DNA of 64,000 bases from Thainema sp. (lineage in GTDB: Bacteria; Cyanobacteriota; Cyanobacteriia; Phormidesmidales; Phormidesmidaceae): contig JBQLZK010000028.1 of the NCBI GenBank assembly GCA_052168235.1, forward strand, positions 18,827-82,826, given 5' to 3'. Positions within the stretch are counted from its first letter, which is position 1; each line of letters starts with the position of its first letter. Position numbers and translations under genes: made by a program. Shown here in pieces: positions 23,196-44,716 of the stretch. The notes below the pieces were generated by a model, which worked only from the letters and a program-made list of their open reading frames with translations, did not search any database and was not told the DNA's origin.

Positions 23196-23571
23196 CAAAT
23201 CGAGCAAAAGTCGCTGTAGCAAAATCTTGACATCATCCTGACATTGATGCGATCGCAATTAGATAGAAAAGCGACTGAATAGAAGAGCAGATTGCTCACT
23301 TTTGGGCCAGTTAAATGTCACGCATTGATTCACAAAAAGCAGTTCAGATTTTATTTTTTCTTAAGGCAGTTGGTACTCTTTAGAGCTTTAGTTGGCGATT
23401 AGAATATTCGTGTCTTGTCAATGCTCGCTTTAAGACGATTAACAGCTCAGATTCGGAGATATTGGGGTGATCCAATCTTGGCTTTAGCCTGCGTTTCAAA
23501 TGTAAATAATTGCTTAAGTCTGACTGCTCCTTACATCCCTGCTCCCTTCGTTGCTTCATGAGGAAATGTTT

Positions 23572-24114
23572 ATGATTGCCACCTCTAGCACCACGCCCAC
23601 AGACGAAACCAACGCCAAGACCTCACTGAATAAACCCGATCAACCTGCTGCCGATCGTCGTTTTAAGCGGCTCGATATGACGATGAAGCGGCATCAACAC
23701 CGAGGGGATGCCCTGATTGAAGTTTTGCATGCGGCACAGGATGCCTTTGGTTATCTCGAAGAAGATGTGCTGGCCTATATCGCTCAGGGCCTGAAGCTGC
23801 CGCTGAGCCGGGTGTACGGCGTTGCCACGTTTTACCATCTGTTTTCGCTGAAGCCCAGCGGTGCCCATAGCTGCGTCGTCTGTATGGGCACCGCCTGCTA
23901 TGTCAAAGGCAGCGGCAAGGTGATGGATGCACTGCAGGCTGAGCTGGGTGTCGAGGCTGGAGAAACTACGCCGGATGGTCAGGTTTCGCTGATGGCGGCC
24001 CGCTGCTTGGGAGCCTGTGGTATTGCTCCGGCGGCTGTATTTGATGGCACAGTGGCGGGCAAGTTGGATGCCAATACTGCCTTGGCGAAGGTTAAAGCCT
24101 GGGAGCAGGAATAA
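23572..24114 (+). CDS. hoxE: Bidirectional hydrogenase subunit HoxE
   Basis: DALIEVLH.AQ..FGYL, SRVYGVATFYH, C.VCMGTACYVKG, ARCLGACG.AP; GAGGA RBS. Confidence 0.95.
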   Translation: MIATSSTTPTDETNAKTSLNKPDQPAADRRFKRLDMTMKRHQHRGDALIEVLHAAQDAFGYLEEDVLAYIAQGLKLPLSRVYGVATFYHLFSLKPSGAHSCVVCMGTACYVKGSGKVMDALQAELGVEAGETTPDGQVSLMAARCLGACGIAPAAVFDGTVAGKLDANTALAKVKAWEQE

Positions 24115-24241
24115 CGAGTCAAGAAAACGAGTCAAGACGATCTGCATCAACGCGAACGGCTGACGTTATGACACCACCCCACCTATCGGCATGATTCTCG
24201 ACATGATGAGTCTGCAACGGTGAACAAGGAGAATTTTGATT

Positions 24242-25891
24242 ATGGATTTAACCGAATTAAGAGAAGTTGCTGCGGCTGAGAGAGCGCGCCAAAAGCCGAT
24301 TCGAATTCACTGCTGCACCTCCACAGGTTGTCGAGCTGCCCAGTCCACAGCGGTGATGGCGAATATGCAGGCGGCTGTGGAAGAAGCTGAATTGTGCGAT
24401 CGCATCGAAGTGGTGGGTGTGGGCTGCATGGGGTTCTGTGGACGGGGGCCACTGGTGCAGGTTGATCCCAGTGATGATTTGTATGAGGAAGTGGTACCGG
24501 AGGATGCGGCCAGTATCATTAGCGCCCTGAATGGCGGCGAGGCTAAGCCGATCAAGGGCGACCCGCAGCACCCCTTCTTTGCCCGCCAGCAGAAGATTGT
24601 GCGGAAGCACAGCGGCAAGGTTGATCCGGAGCGGATTGAAGAGTATATCGCCGTCGGTGGCTACGAGTCGCTGTATAAAGCGCTGTATGAGATGACGCCA
24701 GCAGAGGTGGTGGCGGAAATCAGCAATAGCGGTCTGCGTGGGCGGGGCGGCGGTGGCTATCCCACGGGCCTGAAGTGGGCGACGGTGGCCAAAATGCCCG
24801 GCGATCAGAAGTACGTCATCTGCAATGGTGACGAGGGCGATCCCGGTGCGTTTATGGATCGGAGCGTCTTGGAGAGCGATCCCCACCTGGTTCTGGAAGG
24901 AATGGCGATCGCAGGCTATGCGATTGGGGCTAATCACGGCTACATCTACGTGCGGGCCGAGTATCCCCTGGCGATTAAGCGGCTGCAAAAAGCGATTCAG
25001 CAGGCGAAAAAGTATGGCCTGATGGGTAGCCAGATTTTCGACTCGCCCTTTGACTTCAAGGTAGACATTCGGATTGGCGCAGGCGCATTTGTCTGTGGAG
25101 AAGAAACGGCGCTGATCTTCTCGATTGAAGGCAAGCGCGGCAATCCGCGTCCCCGTCCGCCCTATCCGGCTCAGTCCGGTTTGTGGGACTGCCCGACGCT
25201 GATTAACAACGTCGAAACCTTTGCCAATATTGCCACCATCGTCCAGAAAGGCGCTGACTGGTACGCCAGCATTGGCACCGAAAAGAGCAAGGGCACCAAG
25301 ATCTTTGCGCTGACGGGCAAGATTCTCAACAATGGCCTGATTGAAGTGCCAATGGGGATCACGCTGCGGGAAATTGTGGAGGAAATGGGCGGCGGCGTGC
25401 CCGATGGCGAAGTGAAGGCGGTGCAGACAGGCGGCCCGTCCGGTGGCTGCATTCCGGCTTCCATGCTAGATACGCCAGTGGACTATGACTCCCTGATGCA
25501 GATTGGCTCAATGATGGGTTCTGGCGGCATGGTGGTGATGGATCAAACCACCAGCATGGTTGAGGTAGCTCGCTTCTATATGGAGTTCTGCCGGGGTGAA
25601 ACCTGCGGTAAGTGCGTTCCCTGCCGGACGGGGACGGTACAGCTTTATGCCATGCTGACCAAGCTGGTGAATGGAGACGCCACCGAAGCGGATTTGGAGC
25701 GGATGAAAGCCCTTTGCTACATGGTGAAAGAAACCAGCCTCTGTGGCTTAGGCATGACGGCTCCCAACCCGATTCTGAGTACGCTGCACTTTTTTCCCGA
25801 AGAATATCAAGTGCTGTTGCGATCGCCTGCCTATCTGGACGCTACGCATAATGGCAAATCCGCCGATGCCGCGACCGTTTCAGCCTCCTAA
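24242..25891 (+). CDS. hoxF: Bidirectional hydrogenase diaphorase subunit HoxF
   Basis: [57 protein letters not shown]. Confidence 0.95.
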
Positions 25892-28737: not shown

Positions 28738-28773
28738 GCAAGTTGCGGTGGAAGATGCGATCGCACTCTGTCA

Positions 28774-28849
28774 ATGAGTCAATGCCGATGAGTCAATGCC
28801 GATGAGTCAATGCCGATGAGTCAATGCGGGTGGGCACTGCCCACCCTAC
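28774..28849 (+). repeat. About four copies of a 14-bp tandem repeat followed by a REP-like palindrome
   Basis: ATGAGTCAATGCCG x3.9, then GGGTGGGCACTGCCCACCCTAC. Confidence 0.85.
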
Positions 28850-28929
28850 CCGAAAACGGTCCAATACAAGGTTGGCAAACACGGTGAACATCTACATGCC
28901 CCACACTGAATATCGTTTGGGAGGACTGC

Positions 28930-29949: not shown

Positions 29950-29971
29950 TTAACGTTCGAGGGGAAATGGT

Positions 29972-31227: not shown

Positions 31228-31280
31228 TTTAGTTAATTTAATGATTTCACTTGACTGGGAGAAGCAAAGGAGAATTGGCC

Positions 31281-31514
31281 ATGAGCGTTGACAGTACAAA
31301 ATTCCAAGCCGAACTCGATTCTGCGATCGCAGAAGCCCATCGCATCCAGGCCGAAAAAGGAGCGGACTCACCGGAATGTGCCGCCGCCTGGGATGCCGTT
31401 GAAGAAATGCGGGCTGAGGTATCGCACCAGCATCAAGCGTCGCCAACGTCTAATTTCCAAAAATATGTAGACGAGCATCCCGATGCGCCGGAAGCTCGCA
31501 TGTACGACGACTGA
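31281..31514 (+). CDS. cp12: CP12 family protein, cysteine-depleted variant
   Basis: Core AAAWDAVEE motif and C-terminal Y.DEHPDAPE.R.YDD; only one Cys; AGGAG RBS. Confidence 0.85.
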   Translation: MSVDSTKFQAELDSAIAEAHRIQAEKGADSPECAAAWDAVEEMRAEVSHQHQASPTSNFQKYVDEHPDAPEARMYDD

Positions 31515-31589
31515 ACCGCGACTCACCGATCTATCTATGCTCACAAGCCATACCCCGTGTTTGACCAGGGGTGAAGGGAGGTTTACGAA

Positions 31590-33017
31590 ATGTCTAAAAC
31601 GGTTGTGATTGATCCCGTCACTCGGATTGAGGGTCACGCCAAGATCTCCGTCTTTCTCAACGATGCCGGAGAGGTCGATAAAGCACAGTTTCACGTGGTG
31701 GAATATCGGGGATTCGAGAAGTTTTGCGAAGGCCGCCCCTTCACCGAAATGGCCGGAATTACGGCGCGCATCTGCGGCATTTGTCCCGTAAGCCACCTGA
31801 TTTGCGCTGCCAAAACGGGCGATAAAATCCTGGCGGTGAAAGTGCCAGTGGCGGCAGACAAACTGCGGCGCTTGATGAACTTGGCCCAAATTACCCAATC
31901 CCATGCGCTCTCGTTTTTCCACTTGAGCAGTCCCGATTTTCTACTCGGCTGGGATAGCGATCCGGCCAAGCGCAATGTGTTTGGACTAATCGCCGCTGAT
32001 CCAGAGCTGGCTAGAGCGGGCATTCGCCTGCGTCAGTTCGGTCAAAAAATTATCGAAATTCTGGGTGGGCGCAAGATTCACGCCGCTTGGACTGTCCCCG
32101 GTGGAGTGCGATCGCCGCTGAGTGAAGAGGGTCGCGCTTGGATTGTCGATCGGCTACCGGAATCCCTCGATACCGTCCGTAAAGCCCTGGATATCTTCAA
32201 GGGGCTAATCAACGGCCCGATGCAGGAAGAAGTGAACGTGTTTGGCGAATTCCCGTCGCTATTCATGAGTCTGGTTGGTAAAGATGGCGAATGGGAGCAT
32301 TACGACGGCTATCTGCGCTTTACCGACAGCAACGGCAATATCGTTGCCGATCACCTGAGCGAGGACGACTACCAGGACTTCCTGGGTGAAGCGGTGGAAG
32401 ACTGGTCATACCTGAAATTCCCCTATTACAAGCCCCTGGGCTATCCCGGCGGCATCTATCGGGTGGGGCCACTGGCGCGGTTGAACAACTGTAGCCACAT
32501 TGGCACGCCCAGCGCCAATGCTGAACTGCAAGCCTTCCGGGAATATGCGGGCGGCGTGCCTACCTCGTCGTTCCTCTACCACTATGCGCGGCTAATTGAA
32601 ATTCTGGCCTGTCTCGAAAAAATTCAGGTGCTGATGGACGATCCGGATATGATGTCCAGCCGAGTCCGCTCCGAAGCGGGCGTGAACTCCCTGGTCGGCA
32701 TCGGCGTCAGCGAAGCACCGCGCGGCACCCTGTTCCATCACTATCAGGTGGATGAAAATGGCCTAATCAAAAAGGTCAACCTGATTATTGCCACGGGGCA
32801 CAACAATCTGGCCATGAACAAAACCGTCACCCAGATTGCCCAGCACTACATCCACGGCGAAGACATTCCCGAAGGCTTCCTGAACCGAGTCGAAGCAGGC
32901 ATCCGCTGTTATGATCCCTGCCTCTCCTGCTCCACCCATGCGGTGGGCCAAATGCCGCTGCACATTCAGCTGGTGAAGCCGGACGGTTCCGTCGCGAAAG
33001 AGGTGTATCGGGATTAA
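31590..33017 (+). CDS. hoxH: Bidirectional [NiFe] hydrogenase large subunit HoxH
   Basis: [12 protein letters not shown]1 RICGIC, L2 DPCLSCSTH and a C-terminal extension for HoxW cleavage. Confidence 0.97.
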
Positions 33018-33114
33018 TTGAGAGTGAAGGAGAAGTGCGATCGCACTTTTAATCACTATGCTGATCGCACTTGTCTGAATCTGCCCATGTTGCTACTAGG
33101 GAGGGAAAAGCCAG

Positions 33115-33387
33115 ATGGCCAAAGAAAACTTATTTCTCTGTATGGGATCGGCCTGCCATCAACTGGGTGTCTACGACGTGCTGCCCAAACTGCAAGCTCT
33201 AATCCAAAAGCACGGTCTTGAACAGGAGATTGAGCTGAAGGGATCATTCTGCCTGGAAACCTGTAGCCAAGGCATCGTCATGAAGTTCCACGACACCTGC
33301 TTTTCCAACATCAGCCCTCAAAATGTCGAATCCAAATTCGAAGCCGAAATTCTGCCGAAAATTCAGTCAGCTCTGTCGGCAGTTTAG
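33115..33387 (+). CDS. Thioredoxin-like [2Fe-2S] small protein (HfsA-like)
   Basis: CMGSACH...ELKGSFCLETC (Cx4C...Cx3C); GGAGG RBS. Confidence 0.8.
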   Translation: MAKENLFLCMGSACHQLGVYDVLPKLQALIQKHGLEQEIELKGSFCLETCSQGIVMKFHDTCFSNISPQNVESKFEAEILPKIQSALSAV

Positions 33388-33394
33388 GTCAAGC

Positions 33395-33422
33395 GTAGGG
33401 GCGAATGGCCATTCGCCCCTAC
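33395..33422. repeat. REP-like palindrome
   Basis: GTAGGGGCGAATGGCCATTCGCCCCTAC; same element at 45841, variant at 49030. Confidence 0.85.
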
Positions 33423-33464
33423 GCAATTTAACGCTCCCAGTCCCCATTCTCAGCTTGTTGCACC

Positions 33465-34025
33465 ATGCTGATCCCTACCGTGACTGCTAACGTACCCAAT
33501 CACCTCTGGCAAATCCTCTGGGAATACGACCCCAATGGTCTAATCGTGGTCGATGCCGATTTGTATATCAAGCTGGTGAATCCGGCCTTTTGTGAGATGT
33601 TTGGCATCAAGCCGGACGATGCCATCGGCCAGCCAGCGGAAACGATTTTAGACGATGTCAGCGACTTTAAGCGGGTGTGGGAAACGGGCACGGTGATTCG
33701 CAATCAGCTCAAGCAGTATACGCAGCCGCCGCTGTTGCTCAACCAGGTGATTTTCTCCATTGAGGATGAGGGCATCATTGCCTGCATCATGACCGACTTC
33801 AGCCATCAGCTAGCGCAAAAGCAGGCGCTCACCAAGCTGAAGCACGAGACGATTAAGCAGGTGAACGAAGTGGTCGATCACCAAATGAAAGTGGTGCAGG
33901 AAATCGCCGGACTGCTGGGCGAAACGACTGCCGAAACCAAAGTCAGCCTGCTGAAAATTATTCAGATGCTACAGCAGGAAGCGAGCGATTCTTTGCCGTT
34001 GTTGAATCCCGATGAGCAGCCGTGA
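33465..34025 (+). CDS. PAS domain protein resembling the C-terminal half of sensory [FeFe] hydrogenases (HydS/HfsB)
   Basis: PNGLIVVD.DL.I..VNPAFCEMF PAS followed by VVDHQMKVVQEIAGLLGETTAETKVSL. Confidence 0.75.
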   Translation: MLIPTVTANVPNHLWQILWEYDPNGLIVVDADLYIKLVNPAFCEMFGIKPDDAIGQPAETILDDVSDFKRVWETGTVIRNQLKQYTQPPLLLNQVIFSIEDEGIIACIMTDFSHQLAQKQALTKLKHETIKQVNEVVDHQMKVVQEIAGLLGETTAETKVSLLKIIQMLQQEASDSLPLLNPDEQP

Positions 34026-35265
34026 CATGGAACAGATTTTGTCTTCAACGCGGACTGATGTGGATGCCACCGTTCGTTCTTCGCCTCTGATTGCTGTGAT
34101 GGAAGCCGACAATTTTCTCGATATTGCAGTCAGCAGTTTGAATAAGCAGGGCGAGGAATTGTGCGGTGACAAGGTGAAGTATCTGAAAACCGATGATCAG
34201 GTGATTATCGTCCTGTCAGACGGTTTGGGCAGCGGCGTGAAGGCAAATATTTTGGCCACGCTCACCACTGAAATTCTGATCACGATGCTGAATGCGGATG
34301 TGCCGCTGGAAGAAGTCCTGAAGACAGTAATTGCGACGCTGCCGATCTGCCAGGTGCGGAAGATTGCCTACTCCACGTTCACGATTTTGCGGATCAATCC
34401 GGCCAATAACCACTTCCGCGTGATTAATTTTGACAATCCGGCTCCGTTCTATTTCCACCAGGGTAAGGCCGTCAAGCTAGAGCTGAAAACGCAGGAAATC
34501 CTCGGTCGCAAAATTCAAATTGGTGAAGGCTATCTGCAACGGGGCGATTTTCTGGGCGCGATTAGTGACGGGGTACTCTATGCCGGGATGGGCATTACGC
34601 TGAATTTTGGCTGGGGCTGGGAGAATATCGCGAGTCACATTGAGCAGGTGTTGGTGAATCGCGCTCACACGGCTCGCACCATTATTCGCGAGGTGATTCG
34701 GCATACCCATGAGCTGTATCAAGGCGCAACCGGGGATGATGCCACGTTTGTTGGGGTGTATGTTCGCCAACGCAATCCGCTGCTGATTTTTACGGGGCCA
34801 CCGCTGGATGCGGAGCAGGATGAAGCCTACGTCAGCCGCTTTCTGGAATTTGAAGGGCGCAAGGTGATTTGCGGCGGTACGACTGGCAACATCGTGGCAA
34901 ATTTCCTGGGCGAAATGATTGACATGGATCTGTCCACCATGCGGCGGGAACTGCCACCCATTGGCATGTTGAGCTGCGTAGATCTGGTCACGGAAGGGAT
35001 TTTGACGCTCTCGAAGGCTACCGAGTATATCCGCAACTGTCACTGCGATGTCAGCCAGCTCCAGTTTGACAATAACGGTGCTTACTTGCTCAGCAAAGAG
35101 ATTTTGCAGGCGGATTCGATTCACTTTCTGGTTGGCCAAAGCATCAACGAGTTCTATCAAAATCCGCTGCTGCCCAAGAACATCTCAATTCGGCGCAGTC
35201 TCGTTGAAACATTGGTAGACGTGCTGAGGGCGGGGCAGAAGGAGGTGATGGTGGAGTATTGCTAG
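34012..35265 (+). CDS. SpoIIE/PP2C-family Ser/Thr phosphatase (HfsC-like)
   Basis: SLNK.GEELCGD, VLSDGLGSGVKANILATLT, TLPIC.VR.IAYSTF, SDGV..AG, GDDAT, KVICGGTT; alternative start 34099. Confidence 0.85.
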   Translation: MSSRDMEQILSSTRTDVDATVRSSPLIAVMEADNFLDIAVSSLNKQGEELCGDKVKYLKTDDQVIIVLSDGLGSGVKANILATLTTEILITMLNADVPLEEVLKTVIATLPICQVRKIAYSTFTILRINPANNHFRVINFDNPAPFYFHQGKAVKLELKTQEILGRKIQIGEGYLQRGDFLGAISDGVLYAGMGITLNFGWGWENIASHIEQVLVNRAHTARTIIREVIRHTHELYQGATGDDATFVGVYVRQRNPLLIFTGPPLDAEQDEAYVSRFLEFEGRKVICGGTTGNIVANFLGEMIDMDLSTMRRELPPIGMLSCVDLVTEGILTLSKATEYIRNCHCDVSQLQFDNNGAYLLSKEILQADSIHFLVGQSINEFYQNPLLPKNISIRRSLVETLVDVLRAGQKEVMVEYC

Positions 35266-35410
35266 GGGGGAGTAGGGGAGAGAGGGTGGATGGGTGGATG
35301 GGTGGATGGGTGGATGAGTGGATGGGTAAGGAGTAGGGAGTAGGGAGTAGGTGAGAAAGGGGGTGGGAGTGGGGATGGGTGTTGGTTGCGATGTAGGGAG
35401 TAAGGGGGGG
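35265..35410 (+). repeat. G-rich short tandem repeats (GGATGGGT / GGAGTAG)
   Basis: GGGTGGAT x5 and AGGGAGT x3 between the phosphatase gene and hoxW. Confidence 0.8.
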
Positions 35411-35416
35411 AAGGAG

Positions 35417-35896
35417 ATGGTGGGGATGTTGGTGGTTGGGTATGGCAATACGTTGCGGGGGGATGATGCGGTGGGGTATGAGATTGCGGAGGTGGTGCAG
35501 GATTGGGGGTTGGCTGGTGTGGAGGCGGTAGCTTGCCATCAGTTGACGCCGGAATTGGCAGATGCGATCGCAACTTTCCAATCCATTATTTTCGTAGATG
35601 CTGCGATCGCATCTGTCACCACCTCATCGGATATCACGCTGGAGCGGGTGGAACCGAGTGAGCAAAATCCGTTTACGACCCATGCGTCTACGCCAGCGGC
35701 GTTGCTGACCTTAGCGAAGTGGCTCTATGACGCGACCCCTGTTGCCTATCAGCTGACGATTCCAGCGATTGAGTTTGAGTTTACGGAAAGCCTGTCGCCT
35801 GTGACGGCTGAGGGCAAACGGCTGGCGCTGATGCAGTTACGCCGCATGTGTGAAGACACGCCATCCTCTGCAATGGGAGGCTACGCGAATGCATGA
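35417..35896 (+). CDS. hoxW: Hydrogenase maturation protease HoxW
   Basis: LVVGYGNTLRGDDAVG, HQLTPELA, IIFVDAA, TH; AAGGAG RBS. Confidence 0.9.
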   Translation: MVGMLVVGYGNTLRGDDAVGYEIAEVVQDWGLAGVEAVACHQLTPELADAIATFQSIIFVDAAIASVTTSSDITLERVEPSEQNPFTTHASTPAALLTLAKWLYDATPVAYQLTIPAIEFEFTESLSPVTAEGKRLALMQLRRMCEDTPSSAMGGYANA

Positions 35897-36230
35897 AGTG
35901 AGCATCATGGAAAGCACGCTGGAACTGGCGGAGCAGTCGGCCCAGCAGCAGGGCGCAACGCGGATTCACCAGTTGACGCTGCGGGTGGGTGAGCTGTCGG
36001 GAGTGATTCCGGAGGCGCTGCGGTTTGCCTTTGATGTGGTGGCCCAGGGCACGATGGCGGCAGCGGCCAAGTTAACCATTGAATCGGTGCCTGCGGTGTG
36101 TCATTGCCCCGTTTGCGATCGCGACTTTCAGCCACCGGACATCATCTATGAATGTCCCCACTGCCACGGGCTAGCGACGGAACTGCGGCAGGGCAAAGAA
36201 CTAGAACTTGTATCGTTGGAGGTGTCTTAA
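35889..36230 (+). CDS. hypA: Nickel metallochaperone HypA
   Basis: MHEVSI, VGELSGV.PEAL.FAF, two CxxC motifs, G.EL.L..LEV. Confidence 0.95.
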
Positions 36231-36231
36231 G

Positions 36232-37179
36232 ATGTGTCAGAACTGCGGCTGTAGCCAAGTTGGCGCGGTGACGATTGACGGCATAGAAATGCCCGCGCAT
36301 TCACATGAGGATACGCATGGTCACGCCCACGATCACATGCATGATCATCCTCATATCCATTCACCCTCCCACTCTCCTACCCTCCCACCCGATCACCCAT
36401 CTACCCATCCACCCATCCACCCTCATACTCACCCACCCGATCACAACCATTCCCACACGCTAACAGTGCATCAGGGAATTCTGAGCAAAAATGATCGTTT
36501 AGCTGCCCAAAATCGCGAATCTTTTAAAGCGGCGGGTGTGTTGGTACTCAACGTTCTCTCCTCCCCAGGAGCCGGAAAAACGGCGCTTATTGAACGCTTA
36601 GCTCAAGATTTAGCCGCGCAAACGCCTCAAGATGGGCCGCAGTCTCTCAAAATGGGCGTTGTTGTGGGCGATTTAGCGACGGACAATGATGCTCAGCGGT
36701 TACGGCAGGCGGGTGCGCCAGCGGTGCAGATCACGACGGGTAATGCCTGTCATCTAGAAGCGGAAATGGTAGCGCAGTCGCTAACCCGATTAGACCAGTG
36801 GCCGGAGTTCGATCTGCTGGTAATTGAAAATGTGGGTAATCTGGTGTGCCCGACCAGCTATGACCTGGGCGAAACGCTGCGGGTGGTGTTGCTGTCTACG
36901 ACCGAGGGAGAAGATAAGCCGCTGAAGTATCCGGCCACGTTTAAGAGTGCGGATGTGGTGTTGTTGACGAAGGTGGATATTGCCGAAGCCGTGGGTTGCG
37001 ATCGCACTTTAGCTCTCTCAAATATTCAACGAGTTGCACCACAGGCCAAAGTGTTTGAAGTCTCAGCCCGAACGGGGGCAGGGTTGTCGGATTGGTATGA
37101 GTATTTGGTGGGTCAGCTTGTGCTGCTGGAAAACAAACCAGTAGGGTGCTGTATAGCCCTTCGGGCATGGCTGCGCTAA
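36232..37179 (+). CDS. hypB: Nickel incorporation GTPase HypB
   Basis: MCQNCGC, His-rich segment, [32 protein letters not shown]. Confidence 0.95.
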
Positions 37180-37226
37180 AGCGAAGCGTAACGCACCGTT
37201 CATGGATTTACCTTGATGTAGTTGAG

Positions 37227-37327
37227 GTGTGGGAAAAAACCCGTTTGTGGTGGTGCTTGCCCCCACGCCCCCGCTGGAGGACGAGTCGCTTCCCCCAGAC
37301 CCCCTCCGAAAAAATAACCTGTTGGGT
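37227..37327. repeat. About 100-bp dispersed GC-rich element (inverted copy at 45963-46063)
   Basis: CCCCACGCCCCCGCTGGAGGACG..TCGC.TCCCCCAGACCCCCTCCGAAAAA matches the reverse complement of the 45.97-46.03 kb sequence. Confidence 0.8.
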
Positions 37328-37341
37328 TAGTTAAACGTTAA

Positions 37342-37461
37342 GGAACGTGGATTGAATTAATCCGCAACTGTAGGGGCAGGTTTAGCAGACCAATTTGCAT
37401 CTTGTAATCGATTTGACGGCGAAACCTGCCCCTACGAGATGTCGAATTTAATTCACAATCC
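37342..37461. mobile_element. MITE-like element enclosing a REP palindrome
   Basis: Ends GGAACGTGGATT...AATTCACAATCC; internal GTAGGGGCAGGTTT...AAACCTGCCCCTAC; family members at 49876-50096. Confidence 0.6.
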
Positions 37462-37464
37462 CAA

Positions 37465-40143
37465 ATGAAGGGTGTGGTTATGGTTGCAGTACCTTATCCC
37501 AAATCGAATATCCCTCAGCGTTTGAGTCTCCATGTGGAGGGGATTGTGCAGGGTGTGGGCTTTCGGCCTTTTGTGTATACGCTGGCGCGGTCGGTGGGGG
37601 TGACAGGTTGGGTGCAGAATACGGCGCAGGGTGTGTTTATTGAAATTGAAGGAACGGCGGCGCAACTGCAATCGTTTCAGCAGCGGTTGGAGGCCGAGAA
37701 ACCGGAACATGCGTTGCTTCAGCGAGTGGAGGTAACGCAGTTAGAGAGTATGGGCGATCAGGACTTTCGTATCCTCCCGTCTTCTCAAACAGCGGCGAAA
37801 ACGGCTTTAATTCTGCCCGATCTGGCCACCTGTCCTACCTGTCTCGCAGAAATGTGGGAGCCGACGAATCGCCGCTATCGCTATCCGTTTATCAACTGCA
37901 CCCACTGCGGCCCCCGGTTCAGCATTGTGCGATCGCTACCCTATGATCGACCGCATACGACAATGGCAGGATTTCCGCTTTGTCCTGACTGTCGGCGAGA
38001 GTATGAAGACCCCTGCGATCGCAGATTTCACGCGCAGCCCAATGCTTGCTCAACCTGCGGCCCGCATGTGGAACTGTGGGATCGAGAAGGTAACTGTTTA
38101 GAGCAATCTGATCCAGCGCTTCGGCAGGCAGCAGTGGCACTTGAACAGGGGCAAGTCCTGGCGCTGAAGGGACTGGGCGGATTTCATCTGATGGTGGATG
38201 CCACTAACGAAGCGGCGGTGCAAACGCTGCGGCAGCGGAAGCATCGACCGGATAAGCCGTTAGCGGTGATATTTCCGTCGTTGGCGATGCTGCGCGATTA
38301 CTGTGAGGTATCCGATGCCGCCGTGCAGGTGATGCAATCGGCGGCGGCTCCGATTGTGCTGTTGCCGTTGCGCACGGATGGCGTAATGCTTGCGCCTGGG
38401 GTAGCTCCGGGCAATCCCTCTATCGGCGCGATGTTGCCCTATACGCCGCTGCATCATTTGCTGCTGGCGGAGGTGAATCGCCCCATTGTGGCGACGAGCG
38501 GTAATTTATCCGGTGAACCAATTTGTATTGATGAGCGGGACGCTCTGGAGCGCCTGGGCCAGATTGCCGATAGCTTTCTAGTGCACAATCGCCCGATTGC
38601 CCGTCCGGTGGACGATTCCATTGTGCAGATGGTGCAGGATCAGCCCGTGACGCTGCGACGAGCCAGGGGCTATGCGCCATTTCCGGTAATGCCGCCTGTG
38701 CTCTCATCCCCAGCTCTTCTTCCTCAGGGAGAAGGGAGCAATTCTCCGGAAGTCCCTCTCCCACGGGGAGAGGGATTTAGGGTGAGGGCCACAAACGCCG
38801 AACGACAACAAGATGTAGTTATGCTGGACGTTCCGCTTCCTGACGATACGAAGACTTTGGGTTCTAGTTCGGCGTTGAGATCCCCCCTAGCCCCCCTTAA
38901 AAAGGGGGGAATTGGTTCAAAGTTCCCCCTTTTTAAGGGGGATTTAGGGGGATCGGTTTGGGGTGTTGAAAAACAATTGCAAGATGCCGTTATTTTGTCC
39001 GTTGGTAGTCACCTGAAAAATACCGTCGCCCTACATTTACATGGTCAAACGTTGATTAGTCAGCATTTAGGCGATTTAGATACGCCGCAAGGGTGCGATC
39101 GCTTTAAAGAAACAATTCAGCATCTCTGTGGTTTGTACGATTTGCAGCCCACGGATGTAGATGCGATCGCACATGACGCTCACCCGGATTACTACTCGAC
39201 CCAGTTTGCTAAGGCGTTGCTCAGCCAAACCGATAAGTCCCCGCAACTCATACCTGTCCAGCATCACTACGCTCATGTCCTGTCCTGCATGGTCGATAAC
39301 CAGTGGCAGCCGCCTGTGTTGGGCGTTGCCTGGGACGGCACGGGCTATGGGCTAGACGGCACAATTTGGGGAGGTGAGCTGCTGTGGATTCCGTCCGCTC
39401 ACGTGCCCGCACCGGGATTTGAGCGGGTGGGGCACGTAAAGCCGTTTCCGCTGCCGGGGAGTGAACGGGCGACGGTGGAGCCGCGCCGATCGGCGATTGG
39501 ATTACTCTACAGTTGCCTGGGCGATCGCGCGTTTGACTATACGCATCTGCCCTGCTTCCAGACGTTTACCGCTCAAGAGCAGACGGTGCTGCACCAAATG
39601 CTCCAGCGGGGCTTAAATGCGCCGCTCACGTCCAGCATGGGACGGCTGTTTGATGCCGTTGCCTCGCTGGTAGGACTCCGCCAGCAGGCCAGTTTTGAGG
39701 GACAGGCGGCGATGGCGCTGGAATTTGCGATCGCACATCCCACAGACCAACTCACAGATCAGATCTATCCCTATGCGCTGCATCACTTGCCGGATTCCTC
39801 GCTTCAGTTTGATCCAAAGCCAATGGTGCTGGCGATTTTGGATGACTTGGCGAATCAAGAGTTAACGGCGGACATTGCGATAACATTTCACAATACTTTA
39901 ATTGCCGCATTAGTGGAAATCATTCAGCATTTATGTAAGCGGTATCCAGAACTACAGAAAGTCGCTCTTACGGGTGGATGTTTTCAAAATCGCTATTTGT
40001 TGAACCGCGCCATTCAGCAGCTCCAGGCCATAAATCTATCGGTTGGTTGGCATCAAACCATTCCCACCAATGACGGCGGCATTTCGGCTGGGCAAACAAT
40101 GGCAGCACTGATTGAGTTAAACAATCAGTTAGTTGTCAAATAG
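37465..40143 (+). CDS. hypF: Carbamoyltransferase HypF, with an in-frame repeat-derived insertion
   Basis: GIVQGVGFRPFVY, PDLATC..C, NCTHCGPR, RRFHAQPNAC..CGP, KGLGGFHL, QHHYAH, DGTGYG, SSMGRLFD, GGCFQN, NDGGIS.GQ. Confidence 0.95.
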   Translation: MKGVVMVAVPYPKSNIPQRLSLHVEGIVQGVGFRPFVYTLARSVGVTGWVQNTAQGVFIEIEGTAAQLQSFQQRLEAEKPEHALLQRVEVTQLESMGDQDFRILPSSQTAAKTALILPDLATCPTCLAEMWEPTNRRYRYPFINCTHCGPRFSIVRSLPYDRPHTTMAGFPLCPDCRREYEDPCDRRFHAQPNACSTCGPHVELWDREGNCLEQSDPALRQAAVALEQGQVLALKGLGGFHLMVDATNEAAVQTLRQRKHRPDKPLAVIFPSLAMLRDYCEVSDAAVQVMQSAAAPIVLLPLRTDGVMLAPGVAPGNPSIGAMLPYTPLHHLLLAEVNRPIVATSGNLSGEPICIDERDALERLGQIADSFLVHNRPIARPVDDSIVQMVQDQPVTLRRARGYAPFPVMPPVLSSPALLPQGEGSNSPEVPLPRGEGFRVRATNAERQQDVVMLDVPLPDDTKTLGSSSALRSPLAPLKKGGIGSKFPLFKGDLGGSVWGVEKQLQDAVILSVGSHLKNTVALHLHGQTLISQHLGDLDTPQGCDRFKETIQHLCGLYDLQPTDVDAIAHDAHPDYYSTQFAKALLSQTDKSPQLIPVQHHYAHVLSCMVDNQWQPPVLGVAWDGTGYGLDGTIWGGELLWIPSAHVPAPGFERVGHVKPFPLPGSERATVEPRRSAIGLLYSCLGDRAFDYTHLPCFQTFTAQEQTVLHQMLQRGLNAPLTSSMGRLFDAVASLVGLRQQASFEGQAAMALEFAIAHPTDQLTDQIYPYALHHLPDSSLQFDPKPMVLAILDDLANQELTADIAITFHNTLIAALVEIIQHLCKRYPELQKVALTGGCFQNRYLLNRAIQQLQAINLSVGWHQTIPTNDGGISAGQTMAALIELNNQLVVK
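38701..38954. repeat. Two cyanobacterial palindromic repeat elements inside hypF
   Basis: 38701-38790 ...AGTCCCTCTCCCACGGGGAGAGGGATTTAGGGTGAGGGC; 38879-38954 GATCCCCCCTAGCCCCCCTTAAAAAGGGGGGA...TCCCCCTTTTTAAGGGGGATTTAGGGGGATC. Confidence 0.8.
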
Positions 40144-40249
40144 AGTTGAAGATTAAGACGTTCAGGCGCTGAGCAAATTAAACAATCATTTGGTTGCTAA
40201 ATAGACCATTTCATTCGCATTAATTACGACATTTTTAGGGCATTTAATT

Positions 40250-40513
40250 ATGTGTCTTTCAGTACCCGGAAAGCTTGTTAGTATTACTGATCAAATCAGC
40301 AGTCAAAATCAGGACTCTGACGACTCATCGCTGTGGCGCATGGGCAAGGTTAGCTTTAGCGGTGTGCTGCGAGAGGTCAGTCTGGCCTACGTTCCAGAGG
40401 CTAAGGTGGGGGACTATGTGCTGGTGCATGTTGGCTTTGCCCTCAGCGTCATTGATGAAACAGAAGCTGCCGAAACATTAAGTTACTTGGATCAGCTCAA
40501 TCCGACTAATTAA
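40250..40513 (+). CDS. hypC: Hydrogenase assembly chaperone HypC
   Basis: MCLSVPG, V.F.GV.REV.L, GDYVLVHVGFAL. Confidence 0.95.
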   Translation: MCLSVPGKLVSITDQISSQNQDSDDSSLWRMGKVSFSGVLREVSLAYVPEAKVGDYVLVHVGFALSVIDETEAAETLSYLDQLNPTN

Positions 40514-41038
40514 TCAGAACTATAGTGGAAGTATGGCTGAGTTGGTTGATCTTTTTATTGATACGAGGTTAGTTGAAGTATTAAGGGTCAATTAACTGTT
40601 TGCTGTTGTCGTTATTGATTTTTGCCAGGATTTTTGCCAGCTTCTGTCAATCATTTCTTAATTATTATTCTTGGCAGATGAGCCATTTAATGTATTGGAT
40701 GGAACGATATAAAGCCCAATCCCGATCTAAGATTTTGTTGCAAGAAGACTGAATCAAGGAAAAATTTCAGACTCAATCCTGACTTGATCAAGACTGATTC
40801 AGTGTATTCACTAGCCCGATTTACTGGCCCGATTCATAGCCGACTTATAGATTGATAGTTTCGCAGGTCATTCAAAGATTTTTCGCAATTTATTTGTCGC
40901 TTGCACCACTGCGATATGGCAGAGTTTGCCAAAGAGTTTACCAACTCGTTTGCAGCGACAACCACCAGATGTAGCCGGGTGAGTCTAACTCATCCTGTGC
41001 ATCCATTCATCGTCAAGCTTTCTCGCGAGGAAAGAGCC

Positions 41039-44000
41039 ATGCTATCTCAAACCTTTGCCACGCTGGATGGGAACGAAGCCGTTGCCCGCGTTGCCTATCG
41101 CCTCAGTGAAGTCATCGCCATCTACCCGATCACCCCCGCTTCACCCATGGGCGAATGGGCCGATGCTTGGGCATCCGCAGACCAACCCAACCTATGGGGA
41201 TCGACTCCATCAGTGGTTGAGATGCAGAGCGAAGCGGGTGCAGCCGGAGCCGTTCACGGGGCACTTCAGGCGGGCACGCTGACCACGACGTTTACCGCTT
41301 CCCAGGGGTTGCTGTTGATGATCCCCAACCTCTACAAAATTGCGGGAGAGTTAACCCCAGCCGTGATTCACATCGCCGCTCGTTCCCTGGCCGCGCAGGG
41401 ATTGTCCATCTTTGGCGACCACAGTGACGTAATGGCCGTGCGGTCTACGGGCTGTGCGCTGCTCTGCTCTGCGTCGGTGCAAGAAGCTCAGGATTTAGCT
41501 GCGATCGCAACTCGGGCCACGCTGGAATCGCGCATTCCCTTCCTGCATTTCTTTGATGGTTTCCGCACCTCCCACGAAATTCAGAAGGTGTCGCTGCTGC
41601 CGGATGAGATCCTGCGGGAGTTCATTTCGGATGGCTATGTGCTAGCGCATCGGGCACGGGCGCTCACGCCGGATCGCCCCGTGATTCGCGGCACGGCTCA
41701 GAACCCGGATGTTTACTTCCAGGCGCGGGAAAGCGTCAACACCTACTACAACGCTGCCAGCGAAATCGTGCAGCAGGCAATGGATGACTTTGCCAAGCTG
41801 ACCGGACGGCAGTATCGTCTGTACGACTATCACGGTGCGCCCGATGCCGAGCGAGTGGTAGTGCTGATGGGTTCCGGCTGCGAAACGGCCCATGAAGCGG
41901 TGGATGCGCTGGTGGCTCAGGGTGAGAAAGTGGGCGTTCTGAAAGTGCGGCTCTATCGTCCATTTGATTTGCAAAGCTTTGTCGATGCCCTACCCAGCAC
42001 TGTGAAGGCTTTGGCCGTCTTGGATCGCACCAAGGAACCGGGCAGCACGGGCGAACCGCTCTATTTGGATGTGGTGGGAGCGTTAGCTGAAGCGCAGCGG
42101 TCAGCGGTGAAAGTCGTGGGCGGTCGCTATGGCTTGTCCTCCAAGGAATTCACGCCTGCAATGGTCAAGGCTGTCTTTGATAATTTGGCGGCTGACACTC
42201 CCAAGAATCACTTCACGCTCGGCATCAACGACGATGTTACCCACACCTCGCTTGCCGTTGATCCCAGCTTCTCGACAGAGTCAGATCAAGTGGTGCGGGC
42301 CATCTTCTACGGCCTCGGTTCGGACGGTACCGTTGGAGCCAACAAGAACTCAATCAAGATCATCGGTGAAGAAACCGATAACTACGCCCAGGGCTACTTC
42401 GTCTATGACTCGAAGAAGTCCGGCTCCGTGACCGTGTCGCACCTGCGCTTTGGCCCAGAGCTGATTCGCTCCACCTACCTGGTGTCTAGCGCCAACTTTG
42501 TCGCCTGTCACCAGTGGCAGTTCCTGGAAAAATTTGACCTGCTCTCAGCAGCGAATCCCCAGGGCACATTCCTGCTTAACAGTCCCTACAGCCCGGAAGA
42601 AACCTGGCAGCGACTGCCAGAGTTCCAGCGAGAAGCGATTATCCGCAAACAGCTCCGCGTCTACGTGATCAACGCCTCCCAAGTGGCCAAAGACGCAGGC
42701 ATGGGTCAGCGAATCAACACCGTCATGCAGGTGTGCTTTTTTGCGATCGCAGGTGTCCTCCCTAGAGACGAAGCGATTGCTCAAATTAAGCAGTCCATCC
42801 GCAAGACCTACGGCAAGAAGGGCGAAGCGGTGGTGCAGATGAACCTGAATGCCGTCGATCAAACCCTGGATAACCTGTACGAAGTCGATTACCAGAGCTA
42901 CGCAGCGATTCCCGCTGCCGACGGTGCGGCTCCCGGGTCCTGGGTGCCCGACACTGCACCCGCCTTTGTGCGAGACGTGCTCGGTAAGATGATGGCGCGT
43001 CAGGGCGACGAGATTCCGGTCAGCGCCCTGCCCGTAGATGGCACCTATCCCTGCGGTACGGCCAAGTGGGAAAAACGCAATATCGCCGATGAAATTCCGG
43101 TTTGGGACCCTGATGTCTGCGTCCAGTGCGGCAAGTGTGTCATGGTTTGTCCCCACGCGGTCATTCGGGCCAAAGTCTATGAACCCGCTGCGCTAGACGG
43201 CGCACCCGCCACGTTCAAGAGCACCGATGCCCGCGATCGCGATTGGTCAGGCGAGAAATTCACCATTCAAGTCGCTGCCGAAGACTGTACGGGCTGCACC
43301 CTCTGCGTCGATGTTTGCCCCGCTAAGAACAAGGCGGAACCGCGCAAGAAAGCGCTAAATATGGAGCCGCAGCTACCCTTGCGAGAGCAAGAGCGGGAAA
43401 ACTGGGATTTCTTCCTGAATCTCCCCAATCCTGACCGTCAAGACTTGAATCTGCATAAAATTGCTCACCAGCAAATGCAGGAGCCGCTGTTTGAATTCTC
43501 TGGTGCCTGTGCGGGCTGTGGCGAAACGCCGTACATCAAACTGGCGACCCAGCTCTTTGGCGATCGCATGTTGGTGGCCAATGCCACGGGCTGCTCCTCT
43601 ATCTACGGCGGCAACCTGCCCACCACGCCCTGGAGCTACAACGCCGAAGGACGGGGGCCAGCCTGGTCGAACTCCCTGTTTGAAGATAATGCCGAGTTTG
43701 GCATGGGCTTCCGCGTTGCGGTAGACAAGCAGACGGAATATGCCCGCGAGCTAGTGCAGCAGCTTGCCCTGACCGATACTGGCCCGATTCCCCGCGATTT
43801 GGCAACGGCCATCCTGGCTACCAACCAAACGGACGAAGCCGAAATCTTTGAACAGCGGCAGCGGGTCGCCACGCTGAAGCAACAGATTGAACAAGCACTG
43901 GCCGCTACCACCGATGCCAGTCAGCGCCAGAAACTGATGGCTCTGAAAGCGGTGGCCGACTACCTGGTCAAGAAGAGCGTTTGGCTGATTGGCGGTGACG

Positions 44001-44716
44001 GCTGGGCCTATGACATCGGCTACGGTGGCCTTGATCATGCCTTGGCCAGCGGACGCAATATCAATGTCCTGGTGCTTGATACGGAGGTGTACTCGAATAC
44101 AGGCGGACAGATGTCCAAGTCCACCCCACGGGGAGCAGTGGCCAAATTTGCGGCGGGCGGCAAACCTGCGCCCAAGAAGGATCTGGGCCTGATGGCGATG
44201 ACCTACGGCAACGTCTACGTGGCCAGCGTGGCGATGGGTGCTCGCGATGAGCATACCCTGCGCGCCTTTATGGAAGCCGAAGCTTATGAGGGGCCATCCC
44301 TGATCATTGCCTACTCGCACTGTATCGCCCACGGTATTAACCTGGCGGACGGTCTGAAGCAGCAAAAAGCAATGGTGGATTCCGGTCGCTGGCTGCTCTA
44401 CCGCTACGACCCCCGCCGCACAGAGCAGGGCGAAAATCCATTGGTGATTGACTCCCGTTCGCCCAAGCTGCCTGTTCAGCAAGCAATGTACAGCGAAAAC
44501 CGCTTCAAGCTGCTGACCCGCACCAAGCCGGAAGCCGCCAAGCAACTGGCCGAACTGGCCCAGTCCGACGTAGACACTCGCTGGCAACTGTATCAGTCCC
44601 TGGCGGCTCGGCACATGCAAACCAATGGTCACGATGCCGGACAGGAATCGGGTAACGGTCACAAACCCGCCCCAGATTCGTCCTCATCCGCACCGCCAAC
44701 GGGTTCAACCGTTTAG
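41039..44716 (+). CDS. nifJ: Pyruvate:ferredoxin (flavodoxin) oxidoreductase
   Basis: DGNEAVA, IYPITP, EMQSEAGAAG, GLGSDGTVGANKN, two ferredoxin motifs, FSGACAGCGE, GGDGWAYDIG TPP motif. Confidence 0.97.
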   Translation: MLSQTFATLDGNEAVARVAYRLSEVIAIYPITPASPMGEWADAWASADQPNLWGSTPSVVEMQSEAGAAGAVHGALQAGTLTTTFTASQGLLLMIPNLYKIAGELTPAVIHIAARSLAAQGLSIFGDHSDVMAVRSTGCALLCSASVQEAQDLAAIATRATLESRIPFLHFFDGFRTSHEIQKVSLLPDEILREFISDGYVLAHRARALTPDRPVIRGTAQNPDVYFQARESVNTYYNAASEIVQQAMDDFAKLTGRQYRLYDYHGAPDAERVVVLMGSGCETAHEAVDALVAQGEKVGVLKVRLYRPFDLQSFVDALPSTVKALAVLDRTKEPGSTGEPLYLDVVGALAEAQRSAVKVVGGRYGLSSKEFTPAMVKAVFDNLAADTPKNHFTLGINDDVTHTSLAVDPSFSTESDQVVRAIFYGLGSDGTVGANKNSIKIIGEETDNYAQGYFVYDSKKSGSVTVSHLRFGPELIRSTYLVSSANFVACHQWQFLEKFDLLSAANPQGTFLLNSPYSPEETWQRLPEFQREAIIRKQLRVYVINASQVAKDAGMGQRINTVMQVCFFAIAGVLPRDEAIAQIKQSIRKTYGKKGEAVVQMNLNAVDQTLDNLYEVDYQSYAAIPAADGAAPGSWVPDTAPAFVRDVLGKMMARQGDEIPVSALPVDGTYPCGTAKWEKRNIADEIPVWDPDVCVQCGKCVMVCPHAVIRAKVYEPAALDGAPATFKSTDARDRDWSGEKFTIQVAAEDCTGCTLCVDVCPAKNKAEPRKKALNMEPQLPLREQERENWDFFLNLPNPDRQDLNLHKIAHQQMQEPLFEFSGACAGCGETPYIKLATQLFGDRMLVANATGCSSIYGGNLPTTPWSYNAEGRGPAWSNSLFEDNAEFGMGFRVAVDKQTEYARELVQQLALTDTGPIPRDLATAILATNQTDEAEIFEQRQRVATLKQQIEQALAATTDASQRQKLMALKAVADYLVKKSVWLIGGDGWAYDIGYGGLDHALASGRNINVLVLDTEVYSNTGGQMSKSTPRGAVAKFAAGGKPAPKKDLGLMAMTYGNVYVASVAMGARDEHTLRAFMEAEAYEGPSLIIAYSHCIAHGINLADGLKQQKAMVDSGRWLLYRYDPRRTEQGENPLVIDSRSPKLPVQQAMYSENRFKLLTRTKPEAAKQLAELAQSDVDTRWQLYQSLAARHMQTNGHDAGQESGNGHKPAPDSSSSAPPTGSTV

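Follow-up and report, generated by a model that had tools for sequence, protein, structure and literature searches.

An H-domain-free HfsA/HydS/HfsC-type cassette, a candidate redox relay, in the hox operon of a cyanobacterium

What are three genes that resemble the signalling module of an [FeFe] hydrogenase doing inside the [NiFe] hydrogenase operon of a cyanobacterium? The question is raised by a 64,000-nucleotide stretch of Thainema sp. (contig JBQLZK010000028.1, positions 18,827 to 82,826; the whole stretch is referred to as the window, and positions are given in its coordinates). Three co-directional genes, here named A, B and C, are located between hoxH and hoxW. The original prediction described them as a Firmicute-type hfsA/hydS/hfsC module without its [FeFe] domain. 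The three open reading frames (ORFs) are present on the + strand exactly where they had been placed. According to the available portions of two papers (PMC5707799; PMC11837493), the product of hfsA is a small Fe-S protein, that of hfsB an [FeFe] hydrogenase that carries a PAS domain and is a homologue of HydS from Ruminococcus albus, that of hfsC a serine phosphatase and that of hfsD a ferredoxin-linked [FeFe] hydrogenase. Our analysis confirms A-B-C as a genuine variant of this HydS/Hfs module, conserved and, it appears, not yet described. On the sequence comparisons presented here we propose, with moderate confidence, that it is a signalling cassette from a branch of HfsA/HydS/HfsC that lacks the hydrogenase domain (H-domain), that it was acquired once in this H-less form, and that it would serve as a redox relay for Hox and fermentation.

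The relationship to sensory hydrogenases is seen most directly in B. The only domains detected in this protein belong to PAS families (PAS_9, E 1.7e-8), and it begins about 12 residues before the PAS core. Of 2362 longer candidate proteins, 1771 matched B at E≤0.001. The best 120 of these without exception combine the H-domain PF02906 with a PAS domain, and they align with B at 34–43% identity over 80–100% of the query; names among them include Armatimonadota, Desulfofundulus, Desulfotomaculum, Limnochordia and Hydrogenispora. Elsewhere in the host genome B finds just two weak PAS stretches (E 9e-5 and 5e-4), which indicates that its likeness to HydS is not generic PAS similarity. Used as a profile against PDB sequences, B retrieves generic PAS sensors only. 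A C-terminal helix, QM.V.QEIA.LLGETTAETK, is kept across 49 aligned B and HydS-PAS sequences from HydS and H-less loci alike, and its residues are invariant or nearly so in a 40-sequence alignment of B (A4). The motifs quoted in the original prediction are all present in A, B and C, but B does not end at VVDHQMKVVQEIAGLLGETTAETKVSL, as had been stated; 24 further residues follow that motif. By these alignments, B is homologous to the C-terminal part of HydS/HfsB.

The H-cluster domain is indeed missing, as predicted. PF02906 was not found in the host genome, which is 99.99% complete, nor in the 301 genomes sampled from its class; the control search detected it in Thermotoga maritima and Bacteroides thetaiotaomicron. 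B contains only two cysteines (C43 and C107) and no Fe-S cluster motif, and it lacks the accessory [4Fe-4S] clusters of sensory [FeFe] hydrogenases, including the C-terminal one that precedes their PAS domain. Its counterparts are the PAS ends of group C sensory [FeFe] hydrogenases (HydS of T. maritima and R. albus). These differ from B in having the H-domain and the C-terminal [4Fe-4S] site, the latter described as a HydS feature in the accessible part of PMC13104023. Without either element, B itself cannot bind H2.

A carries its cysteines as C9-x4-C14 and C46-x3-C50. The four residues, in the pattern C.GS.CH..G ... FC...C, are invariant in 44/44 aligned A/HfsA sequences drawn from HydS and H-less loci. 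A aligns with residues 110–183, the [2Fe-2S] domain, of the HoxE encoded in the window at 26% identity (E 1e-5), and shows no similarity to HoxF (E 4.8). It therefore appears to be the equivalent of the HoxE/NuoE C-terminal domain standing alone.

C contains the motifs LNKQGEELCGD, SDGLGSGVKANILATLT and ICGGTT and matches the Pfam family SpoIIE (E 2.2e-19, residues 61–249). Translation of C probably begins at M30 (34099), since most homologues are 388 residues long and start at the equivalent residue; with this start the 14-nt overlap with B disappears. Full-length relatives covering both domains (residues 30–417) form 1044 representative clusters at E≤1e-10. An AlphaFold model based on a 77-sequence alignment (predicted local distance difference test, pLDDT, 93.2; predicted template modelling score, pTM, 0.87) shows a PP2C fold in residues 1–225, with Foldseek matches at E 4e-15 to 3e-12. 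The best matches are SpoIIE (5mqh, E 4e-15), 3pu9, 5ucg, RsbU (3ke6) and RsbX (3w40), and a Sphaerobacter phosphatase is among them. Within the 77 sequences D41 and D214 are invariant, and D24, D150, D157 and D213 are conserved in at least 90%. We take these aspartates to be the PP2C metal site, on the basis of the PP2C motifs rather than of structural superposition. C is thus predicted to be a PP2C/SpoIIE-type protein phosphatase.

The C-terminal part of C (residues 250–417, about 160–165 residues) has no Pfam family. It includes CGGTT, DLVTEG and a terminal EYC, and can be aligned across 50 loci, with GPP, GG, TEG and other positions invariant. Modelled alone (pLDDT 92.4), it forms a three-layer alpha/beta domain, in which the invariant CGGTT lies between the second strand and the next helix and the invariant TEG ends a later strand. 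This geometry would be compatible with a phosphate- or nucleotide-binding loop. Foldseek found no PDB match at E≤0.001, the best being methylglyoxal-synthase-like with a TM of about 0.4. VIA-align placed NuoG first (7awt_G residues 374–532, Z 10.0, root-mean-square deviation 3.0 over 116 residues), followed by FhcB (Z 9.4) and by formate dehydrogenase/HDCR domains (8.2–8.7). These best matches are dinucleotide-binding domains of NuoG and formate dehydrogenase-type enzymes; as their scores are only modestly above the typical Z of 7–8, we treat them as a lead and not as an assignment. The profile of the domain retrieves only phosphoheptose isomerase from the PDB sequences (E 0.005), and in the ESM Atlas it occurs as stand-alone hypothetical proteins of about 150 residues without a family. 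A prediction of the complex between C and B (alignments A2 and A4) scored 0.01 against a mark of 0.32, and is evidence neither way.

The assignment of the three genes to hfsA-hydS-hfsC is borne out by the HydS-type relatives of B, the cysteines of A and the conserved gene order. In hfsABCD of Thermoanaerobacterium saccharolyticum and T. thermosaccharolyticum, a [2Fe-2S] protein, a PAS-bearing protein and a PP2C follow each other in the same way, and each of A, the PAS domain and helix of B, and the two domains of C has a homologous counterpart there. Two differences stand out. HfsB carries the H-cluster domain and Fe-S clusters, whereas B has neither, and hfsC is followed by hfsD (PMC11837493, available portion), whereas C is followed by hoxW and the enzyme is the [NiFe] hydrogenase Hox.

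Where the H-less form arose can be judged from relatives outside the cyanobacteria. A scan of one genome per species gave 580 relatives of C, from which 80 loci were kept and classed by whether the high-scoring segment pair of the H-domain abuts that of the PAS domain. They comprise 57 HydS-type loci, 10 cyanobacterial H-less loci, 11 other H-less loci and 2 at contig edges (loci and genomes are cited below by L and G numbers). The gene order A-(HydS or B)-C is found in all of the 80 loci whose flanks show the order; A was detected in 49/57 HydS loci, 9/11 other H-less loci and 10/10 cyanobacterial loci. The other H-less loci belong to Chloroflexota (L069, L078, L093), KSB3/Moduliflexus (L109, L131), Chthonomonadaceae (L138), Acidobacteriales (L108), Thermotogota (L097) and Planctomycetota (L099, L135), together with L092.

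C is 52–57% identical to its counterparts in the H-less cassettes of Bellilinea/Chloroflexota, KSB3/Moduliflexus, Chthonomonadaceae and Acidobacteriales, compared with 35–44% for HydS-linked copies, those of Bacillota included. At the level of 50% clusters the closest non-cyanobacterial sequence is from Bellilinea (57%), followed by Acidobacteriota, Thermotogota and Izemoplasmataceae/Bacillota at about 41%. Two trees of C were calculated, a quick one with all 104 rows and a careful one with 56 rows (LG+C20 PMSF), the latter leaving out L050, which has a very long branch, and near-duplicate rows. In the 56-row tree the cyanobacterial sequences form one clade (support 99/98). This clade is nested in a 21-row clade in which all members are H-less (99/93; 94/91 when the long Thermotogota branch is included), and all HydS-linked copies from Bacillota lie across a branch with support 96/94. 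The 104-row tree has the same topology. A second, independent H-less group, from Planctomycetota and one Anaerolineales bin, is seen at L099, L135, L105 and L087. The Planctomycete H-less group is sister to a Planctomycete locus with full HydS (100/99) and lies on the Bacillota side of the 96/94 branch. With two such groups on the tree, the H-less state has at least two origins, or disappeared and came back; the cyanobacteria belong to the larger group.

Because the cyanobacterial clade lies within an H-less clade, the cassette most likely lacked the H-domain before it entered cyanobacteria. The trees thus point, most likely, to a single acquisition of an H-less cassette, which would since then have travelled with, or stayed beside, the Hox [NiFe] genes. 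The original prediction had instead envisaged the entry of a Firmicute-type module of which only the PAS part remains here; neither element of that scenario is supported. In its full form, the scenario has a complete hfsA-hydS-hfsC set passing laterally from a Firmicute into a cyanobacterium, where the H-cluster domain was deleted. It would account for the similarity between B and the PAS ends of complete HydS proteins, which include many from Bacillota among the best 120 of the 1771 matches, and for the shared gene order and motifs. Yet C is nearest to H-less copies from Chloroflexota, KSB3, Armatimonadota and Acidobacteriota, the Bacillota lie beyond the 96/94 branch, and stand-alone B proteins with LW.LLW[DE]YDPNGL and NPAFC exist in other H-less phyla. 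We therefore regard this transfer as very improbable.

The main H-less clade is also marked by motifs that HydS-linked proteins lack: LW.LLW[DE]YDPNGL and NPAFC in B, and the terminal EYC in C. Several of its conserved positions are additional cysteines, in NPAFC and IACI of B and in EYC of C, and in the cyanobacterial C there is a CxC as well (NCHCD, for instance). Such residues might form thiol or metal sites.

Vertical inheritance within the phylum would be a different route to the same cassette. Here the ancestor of the phylum would have had the HydS module, which the non-photosynthetic class kept and which lost its H-domain in the photosynthetic class. A sister class (families f34 and f37), presumably the non-photosynthetic Vampirovibrionia/Melainabacteria, does carry A-HydS-C, in 126 genomes of about 2 Mb, one of them with adhE directly in the series (L049, described below). 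However, C of this class is only 30–36% identical to that of the window and sits on a separate long branch in the 56-row tree (100/100). Forcing it together with the cyanobacterial C costs 18.7 log-likelihood units, with a p value of 0.031 in the approximately unbiased test, which is marginal and concerns a group picked after the tree had been seen. C is moreover present in just 25/301 genomes of the photosynthetic class. Common descent from such an ancestor seems to us very improbable as well.

The surroundings of the cassettes suggest what A-B-C might be connected to. Genes resembling HoxF/NuoF lie within 6 kb of 8/11 non-cyanobacterial H-less loci, compared with 6/57 HydS loci. The diaphorase-flanked H-less loci mostly have HoxE/F/U-like genes together with an [FeFe] H-domain gene, which is the HydABC type; in L069 (Chloroflexota) only hoxE-hoxF is found 5' of A-B-C. 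HydS loci are usually followed by a gene for an HfsD-like [FeFe] hydrogenase, an H-domain gene lying at most 2.5 kb 3' of C in 30/57. The H-less cassettes of Bellilinea/Chloroflexota, KSB3/Moduliflexus, Chthonomonadaceae and Acidobacteriales share with the cyanobacterial one the three genes, the clade and the motifs, and differ from it in standing beside HoxE/F-like genes, with or without an [FeFe] enzyme of HydABC type, rather than beside [NiFe] Hox. What the H-less lineage has in common, in cyanobacteria as elsewhere, is a hydrogenase, or its remnant, with a NuoE/F-type flavoprotein diaphorase.

The linkage to hox also holds across other cyanobacteria. We surveyed 301 genomes sampled evenly from the class (thresholds E≤1e-120 for hoxH, E≤1e-60 for C and E≤1e-150 for adhE), and found hoxH in 97, C in 25 and adhE in 129. 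All 25 genomes with C have hoxH, and C occurs in 0/204 genomes without it. In 22/25 the two genes share contig and strand, with C 0.8–4.3 kb 3' of hoxH; G424, G414 and G555 have them on different contigs. Local tblastn recovered the order hoxE-F-U-Y-H-A-B-C-(hoxW) in L034–L040, L062, L065, L066, L070–L072, L074, L076, L077 and L085, and a hoxW homologue follows C in L034, L035, L038, L062, L065, L066 and others. The hoxH gene of the window is 66–96% identical to those of the 96 other sampled genomes. Even in family f14, where the genes are scattered, 4/4 genomes keep C, B (43–46% identity) and hoxH, and G296 of this family retains hoxH-A-B. Retention without linkage argues for a functional unit.

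Among the best 120 relatives of near-equal length, C shows 72–99% and B 63–99% identity, and the named ones are cyanobacterial with a single exception for C. They include Leptolyngbya, Nodosilinea, Phormidium, Cyanothece PCC 7425, Pleurocapsales, Hydrococcus, Stanieria, Scytonema, Spirulina subsalsa, Pantanalinema and Elainella. The exception, P0097, is a 388-residue relative of C, 74% identical, from a metagenome-assembled genome that its source names 'Candidatus Obscuribacterales bacterium', a non-photosynthetic lineage; it may reflect a binning error or a transfer.

A link to ethanol formation emerges from the same survey. The adhE gene is present in 23/25 genomes with C, in 27/72 genomes with hoxH but without C, and in 79/204 without hoxH (Fisher's test for 23/25 against 27/72, p 1.4e-6, uncorrected for relatedness). 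In L065 and L066 it is the gene that separates hoxH from A; it is found immediately 5' of A in Spirulina subsalsa (L079), immediately 3' of hoxH in G424 and 5 kb upstream of hoxE in L062. In G438, an adhE 88% identical to that of the window is found 1.7 kb from hoxH. Outside the cyanobacteria, adhE occurs within 6 kb of 14/57 HydS loci and rex within 6 kb of 12/57. The small-genome sister-class member G293 carries adhE-rex-hydS-hfsC in L049 (8962–15201), with an adhE 62% identical to that of the window; no other locus compared joins ethanol, redox and HydS genes so compactly. In Thermoanaerobacterium, deletion of hfsA or hfsB raises adhE expression and ethanol yield, as reported in the available portion of PMC5707799. 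The co-occurrence of the cassette with adhE parallels this effect, and adhE is a neighbour or genetic partner in both systems. This co-occurrence lends indirect support to the function put forward in the original prediction, a redox or H2 relay that would regulate fermentation through dephosphorylation.

How could the cassette work? We propose that the predicted [2Fe-2S] cluster of A, as the sole redox cofactor of the cassette, would report the state of the ferredoxin/NAD(P)H pool. A is placed at the input because it is the only cofactor-bearing part. It would probably read the pool through the NuoE/F-like diaphorase part (HoxEFU) of the neighbouring hydrogenase, since the H-less lineage shares a NuoE/F-type diaphorase and A itself is NuoE/HoxE-like. 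B would pass this state on through its PAS domain and invariant C-terminal helix. C, with its PP2C domain and possibly nucleotide-binding alpha/beta domain, would then dephosphorylate a Ser/Thr phosphoprotein encoded elsewhere, and thereby set the activity or expression of Hox and the branch through AdhE and pyruvate:ferredoxin oxidoreductase (PFOR) in dark anoxia. Of this scheme, the signal, the succession of the three proteins, the phosphatase activity of C and its target are our inference.

A more far-reaching version of this relay makes the neighbouring hydrogenase the sensing head. A would dock on the diaphorase (HoxEFU here, HydBC elsewhere), Hox would act as the H2/redox sensor read by B and C, and C would control AdhE-dependent ethanol fermentation as well as Hox by dephosphorylation, with CyAbrB-type regulators, reported as phosphoproteins (PMC13421787), as candidate targets. 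We offer this only as a tentative possibility.

The same features could serve a different signal. The enzymes neighbouring the cassette work in anoxia, and O2 or oxidative stress might be sensed by the cluster of A or by thiols of B and C, switching off the O2-sensitive Hox, PFOR and AdhE. That A is the sole cofactor-bearing part fits such a role, as do the extra cysteines of the main H-less clade (NPAFC; EYC and CxC), which HydS-linked copies lack. Most non-cyanobacterial hosts of the cassette are, however, strict anaerobes by their source names, and we consider O2 sensing unlikely, though the features described would fit either input.

Several observations weigh against the redox relay that we favour. 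The cassette is absent from 72/97 genomes with hoxH. In the same-genus genome G465 (L061), hoxEFUYH-hoxW-hypAB occupies the corresponding chromosomal site, likewise with a GH9 glycoside hydrolase gene upstream; its hoxU, hoxY and hoxH are 96% identical to the window's, but A-B-C, adhE, the Zn-dependent alcohol dehydrogenase (Zn-ADH) gene and the CP12 gene are missing. The cassette is thus dispensable for Hox function. The counts are uncorrected for relatedness, the 25 genomes with C falling in about 11 families, and adhE is common in the class anyway (129/301). The match of A to the thioredoxin-like [2Fe-2S] family PF01257 is weak (E 6e-4; 20 bits, below the 24.8-bit cut-off); the homologous A proteins of L045 and L047 score 33–37 bits. 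No STAS substrate or anti-sigma kinase was found among the 37 other ORFs scanned in the window, the rest of the genome not having been searched. Similarly, no kinase or STAS protein was found among 24 ORFs located 3' of C in other loci; these are 24 of the 70 found, those matching hydrogenase, hoxW or hoxE genes by tblastn having been left out. C may thus have no dedicated protein partner to dephosphorylate.

If C does not signal, A, B and C could be accessories for the assembly, maturation or electron transfer of the hydrogenase. Their location among the hox and hyp genes, between hoxH and hoxW, would be natural for such proteins, A resembles a domain of HoxE, and the C-terminal domain of C fits domains of NuoG and formate dehydrogenase best (Z 8–10). 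On the other hand, the same cassette stands beside [FeFe] hydrogenases, which use different maturases, and the combination of a PAS protein with a PP2C that retains its catalytic aspartates is a signalling architecture. The 72 hoxH-bearing genomes without the cassette, one of them of the same genus, also do without any such accessory, and we judge this role improbable.

The scans for STAS proteins and kinases bear equally on the idea that C belongs to a generic partner-switching module of RsbU/SpoIIE type for a sigma factor, located in the hox operon by chance. C shares with SpoIIE, RsbU and RsbX the PP2C fold, which is nearest to theirs, and the conserved aspartates. Unlike them, its regulatory part is the C-terminal alpha/beta domain without a Pfam family, and neither the window ORFs nor the 24 downstream ORFs include a STAS substrate or anti-sigma kinase. 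The strict phyletic tie to hoxH (25/25 against 0/204) and the presence of a hydrogenase gene next to the cassette in several phyla leave a chance location with very little to recommend it. An analogy in principle to the proposed relay is the HoxBC-HoxJ-HoxA system of Ralstonia/Cupriavidus, where a hydrogenase-linked sensor acts through a phosphorylation switch on hydrogenase genes (PMC5707799, available portion). It has no sequence relation to the cassette, uses a histidine kinase and a response regulator rather than a PP2C, and its sensor is a dedicated [NiFe] hydrogenase.

The original prediction knew of no description of such a module in cyanobacteria, and we found none in the literature searched, which left subscription-only papers and supplements outside its scope. 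None of the terms PAS, phosphatase and SpoIIE occurs in the text of a survey of hydrogenases across the phylum (PMC5186783), and a 2026 review of cyanobacterial redox signalling (PMC13421787) is without PP2C, SpoIIE or HydS. The available portion of the paper on the Lyngbya genome (PMC3858816) treats ORFs located between these two hox genes, hoxH and hoxW, in general terms only. Regulation of cyanobacterial Hox is known only at the transcriptional level, through LexA, CyAbrB1/2 and RpaA (PMC13421787). A phosphatase cassette in the operon of about a quarter of the hoxH-bearing genomes (25/97) points to an unstudied regulatory layer, and its co-occurrence with adhE suggests a phenotype, namely the split between H2 and ethanol in dark anoxia.

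The signalling mechanism and partners of HydS are stated to be unknown in the accessible part of PMC13104023. A natural cassette that has the ferredoxin, the PAS domain with its helix and the phosphatase but no H-domain separates the output of sensory hydrogenases from their input, and it also occurs in genetically tractable phototrophs. Should the hydrogenase prove to be the sensing head, the cassette would constitute a post-translational H2/redox signalling pathway in cyanobacteria and a natural 'split' HydS, which could reveal how sensory hydrogenases signal. Deletion of hfsB is a practical route to higher ethanol yield in thermophiles (PMC5707799, available portion). A cyanobacterial hfs counterpart could matter for photobiological H2 or ethanol production.

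The genes around the cassette form a hydrogenase and fermentation cluster on the + strand (Table 1), in the order hoxE-hoxF-adhE-Zn-ADH-hoxU-hoxY-CP12-hoxH-A-B-C-hoxW-hypA-hypB-hypF-hypC-nifJ, with hypD found beyond the PFOR gene.

Table 1. Coordinates of the cassette and of the surrounding hydrogenase and fermentation genes in the window
Feature	Position	Strand	Evidence or remark
hoxE and hoxF (diaphorase subunits)	23551..25891	+	HoxE NF005747, 271 bits (cut-off 224); HoxF matches NuoF family
adhE	26023-28737	+	AdhE NF010378, 1410 bits (cut-off 951)
Zn-ADH/quinone-oxidoreductase gene	28930-29949	+	between hoxF and hoxU, with adhE
hoxU	29972-30688	+	HoxU NF005745, 421 bits (cut-off 333)
hoxY	about 30676-31227	+	hoxY homologues present in all compared hox loci
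CP12-domain gene	31251..31514	+	PF02672, E 1e-23; between hoxY and hoxH
hoxH ([NiFe] hydrogenase large subunit)	31590..33017	+	NiFeSe_Hases; immediately 5' of A
A	33115..33387	+	90-aa ORF; probable thioredoxin-like [2Fe-2S] protein, HfsA-type
B	33465..34025	+	186-aa ORF; PAS and conserved C-terminal helix
C	34012..35265	+	417-aa ORF; predicted PP2C/SpoIIE phosphatase (HfsC-type) with C-terminal alpha/beta domain; likely start 34099
hoxW (hydrogenase maturation protease)	35351..35896	+	TIGR00072, 65 bits (cut-off 47); immediately 3' of C
hypA, hypB, hypF, hypC (maturation genes)	35850..40513	+	TIGR00100, TIGR00073, TIGR00143, TIGR00074, all above cut-offs
nifJ (PFOR)	40901..44716	+	TIGR02176, 1833 bits

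The true start of hoxW is probably the ATG at 35417. Base composition does not mark the cassette as an island, the GC content being 0.537–0.543 within it and 0.54–0.57 around it. A consensus scan for promoters and terminators over 22500–41000 found fewer sites than in shuffled sequences (7 against 13.2 and 13 against 18.5) and is uninformative; it placed no terminator-like sites in the hoxH-A, A-B or C-hoxW spacers. The spacer of about 150 nt from the stop of C to the likely start of hoxW (within 35263–35434) is a G-rich tandem repeat with a period of 8, GGATGGGT-like, which accounts for the GC skew of 0.22 in 34001–36000. Its complement, ACCCATCC-like, recurs at 36343–36438 in the coding sequence of the His/Pro-rich N-terminus of HypB.

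With adhE and the Zn-ADH gene inserted between hoxF and hoxU, an ethanol-forming enzyme is encoded inside the hox operon itself. CP12 is a redox-regulated switch protein of the Calvin cycle. Its gene is also found between hoxY and hoxH in L062, L063, L064 and L065, and after hoxW in L066 and L071; it co-occurs with the cassette in L062, L064 and L065 and is present without it in L063. Compared with G465, the identity of the hox cluster is a mosaic, with 96% for hoxU/Y/H, 72% for hoxF, 74% for hoxW and 78% for hypB. The hoxH gene of the window is 92% identical to those of G609 (L062) and G563, which are from other families, and only 85% to those of G264 and G478 from the same family. This pattern suggests recombination or transfer of hox segments among cyanobacteria.

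Further upstream, a Hanks-type Ser/Thr kinase-TPR gene (18236–20170) is located 3.4 kb from hoxE, adjoining genes for NDH-2 (16278–17663) and the GH9 glycoside hydrolase (20181–22589). It is not conserved beside the cassette, the only match, at 44%, being in L044. Near the start of the window two DUF5615 genes with identical Pfam scores (1571–1903 and 2977–3309) flank a ParE-type toxin gene (2281–2580), so that the region 1571–3309 resembles a duplicated toxin-antitoxin-like unit. A PIN-domain gene is located at 7242–7619 and a XisI gene at 10092–10427.

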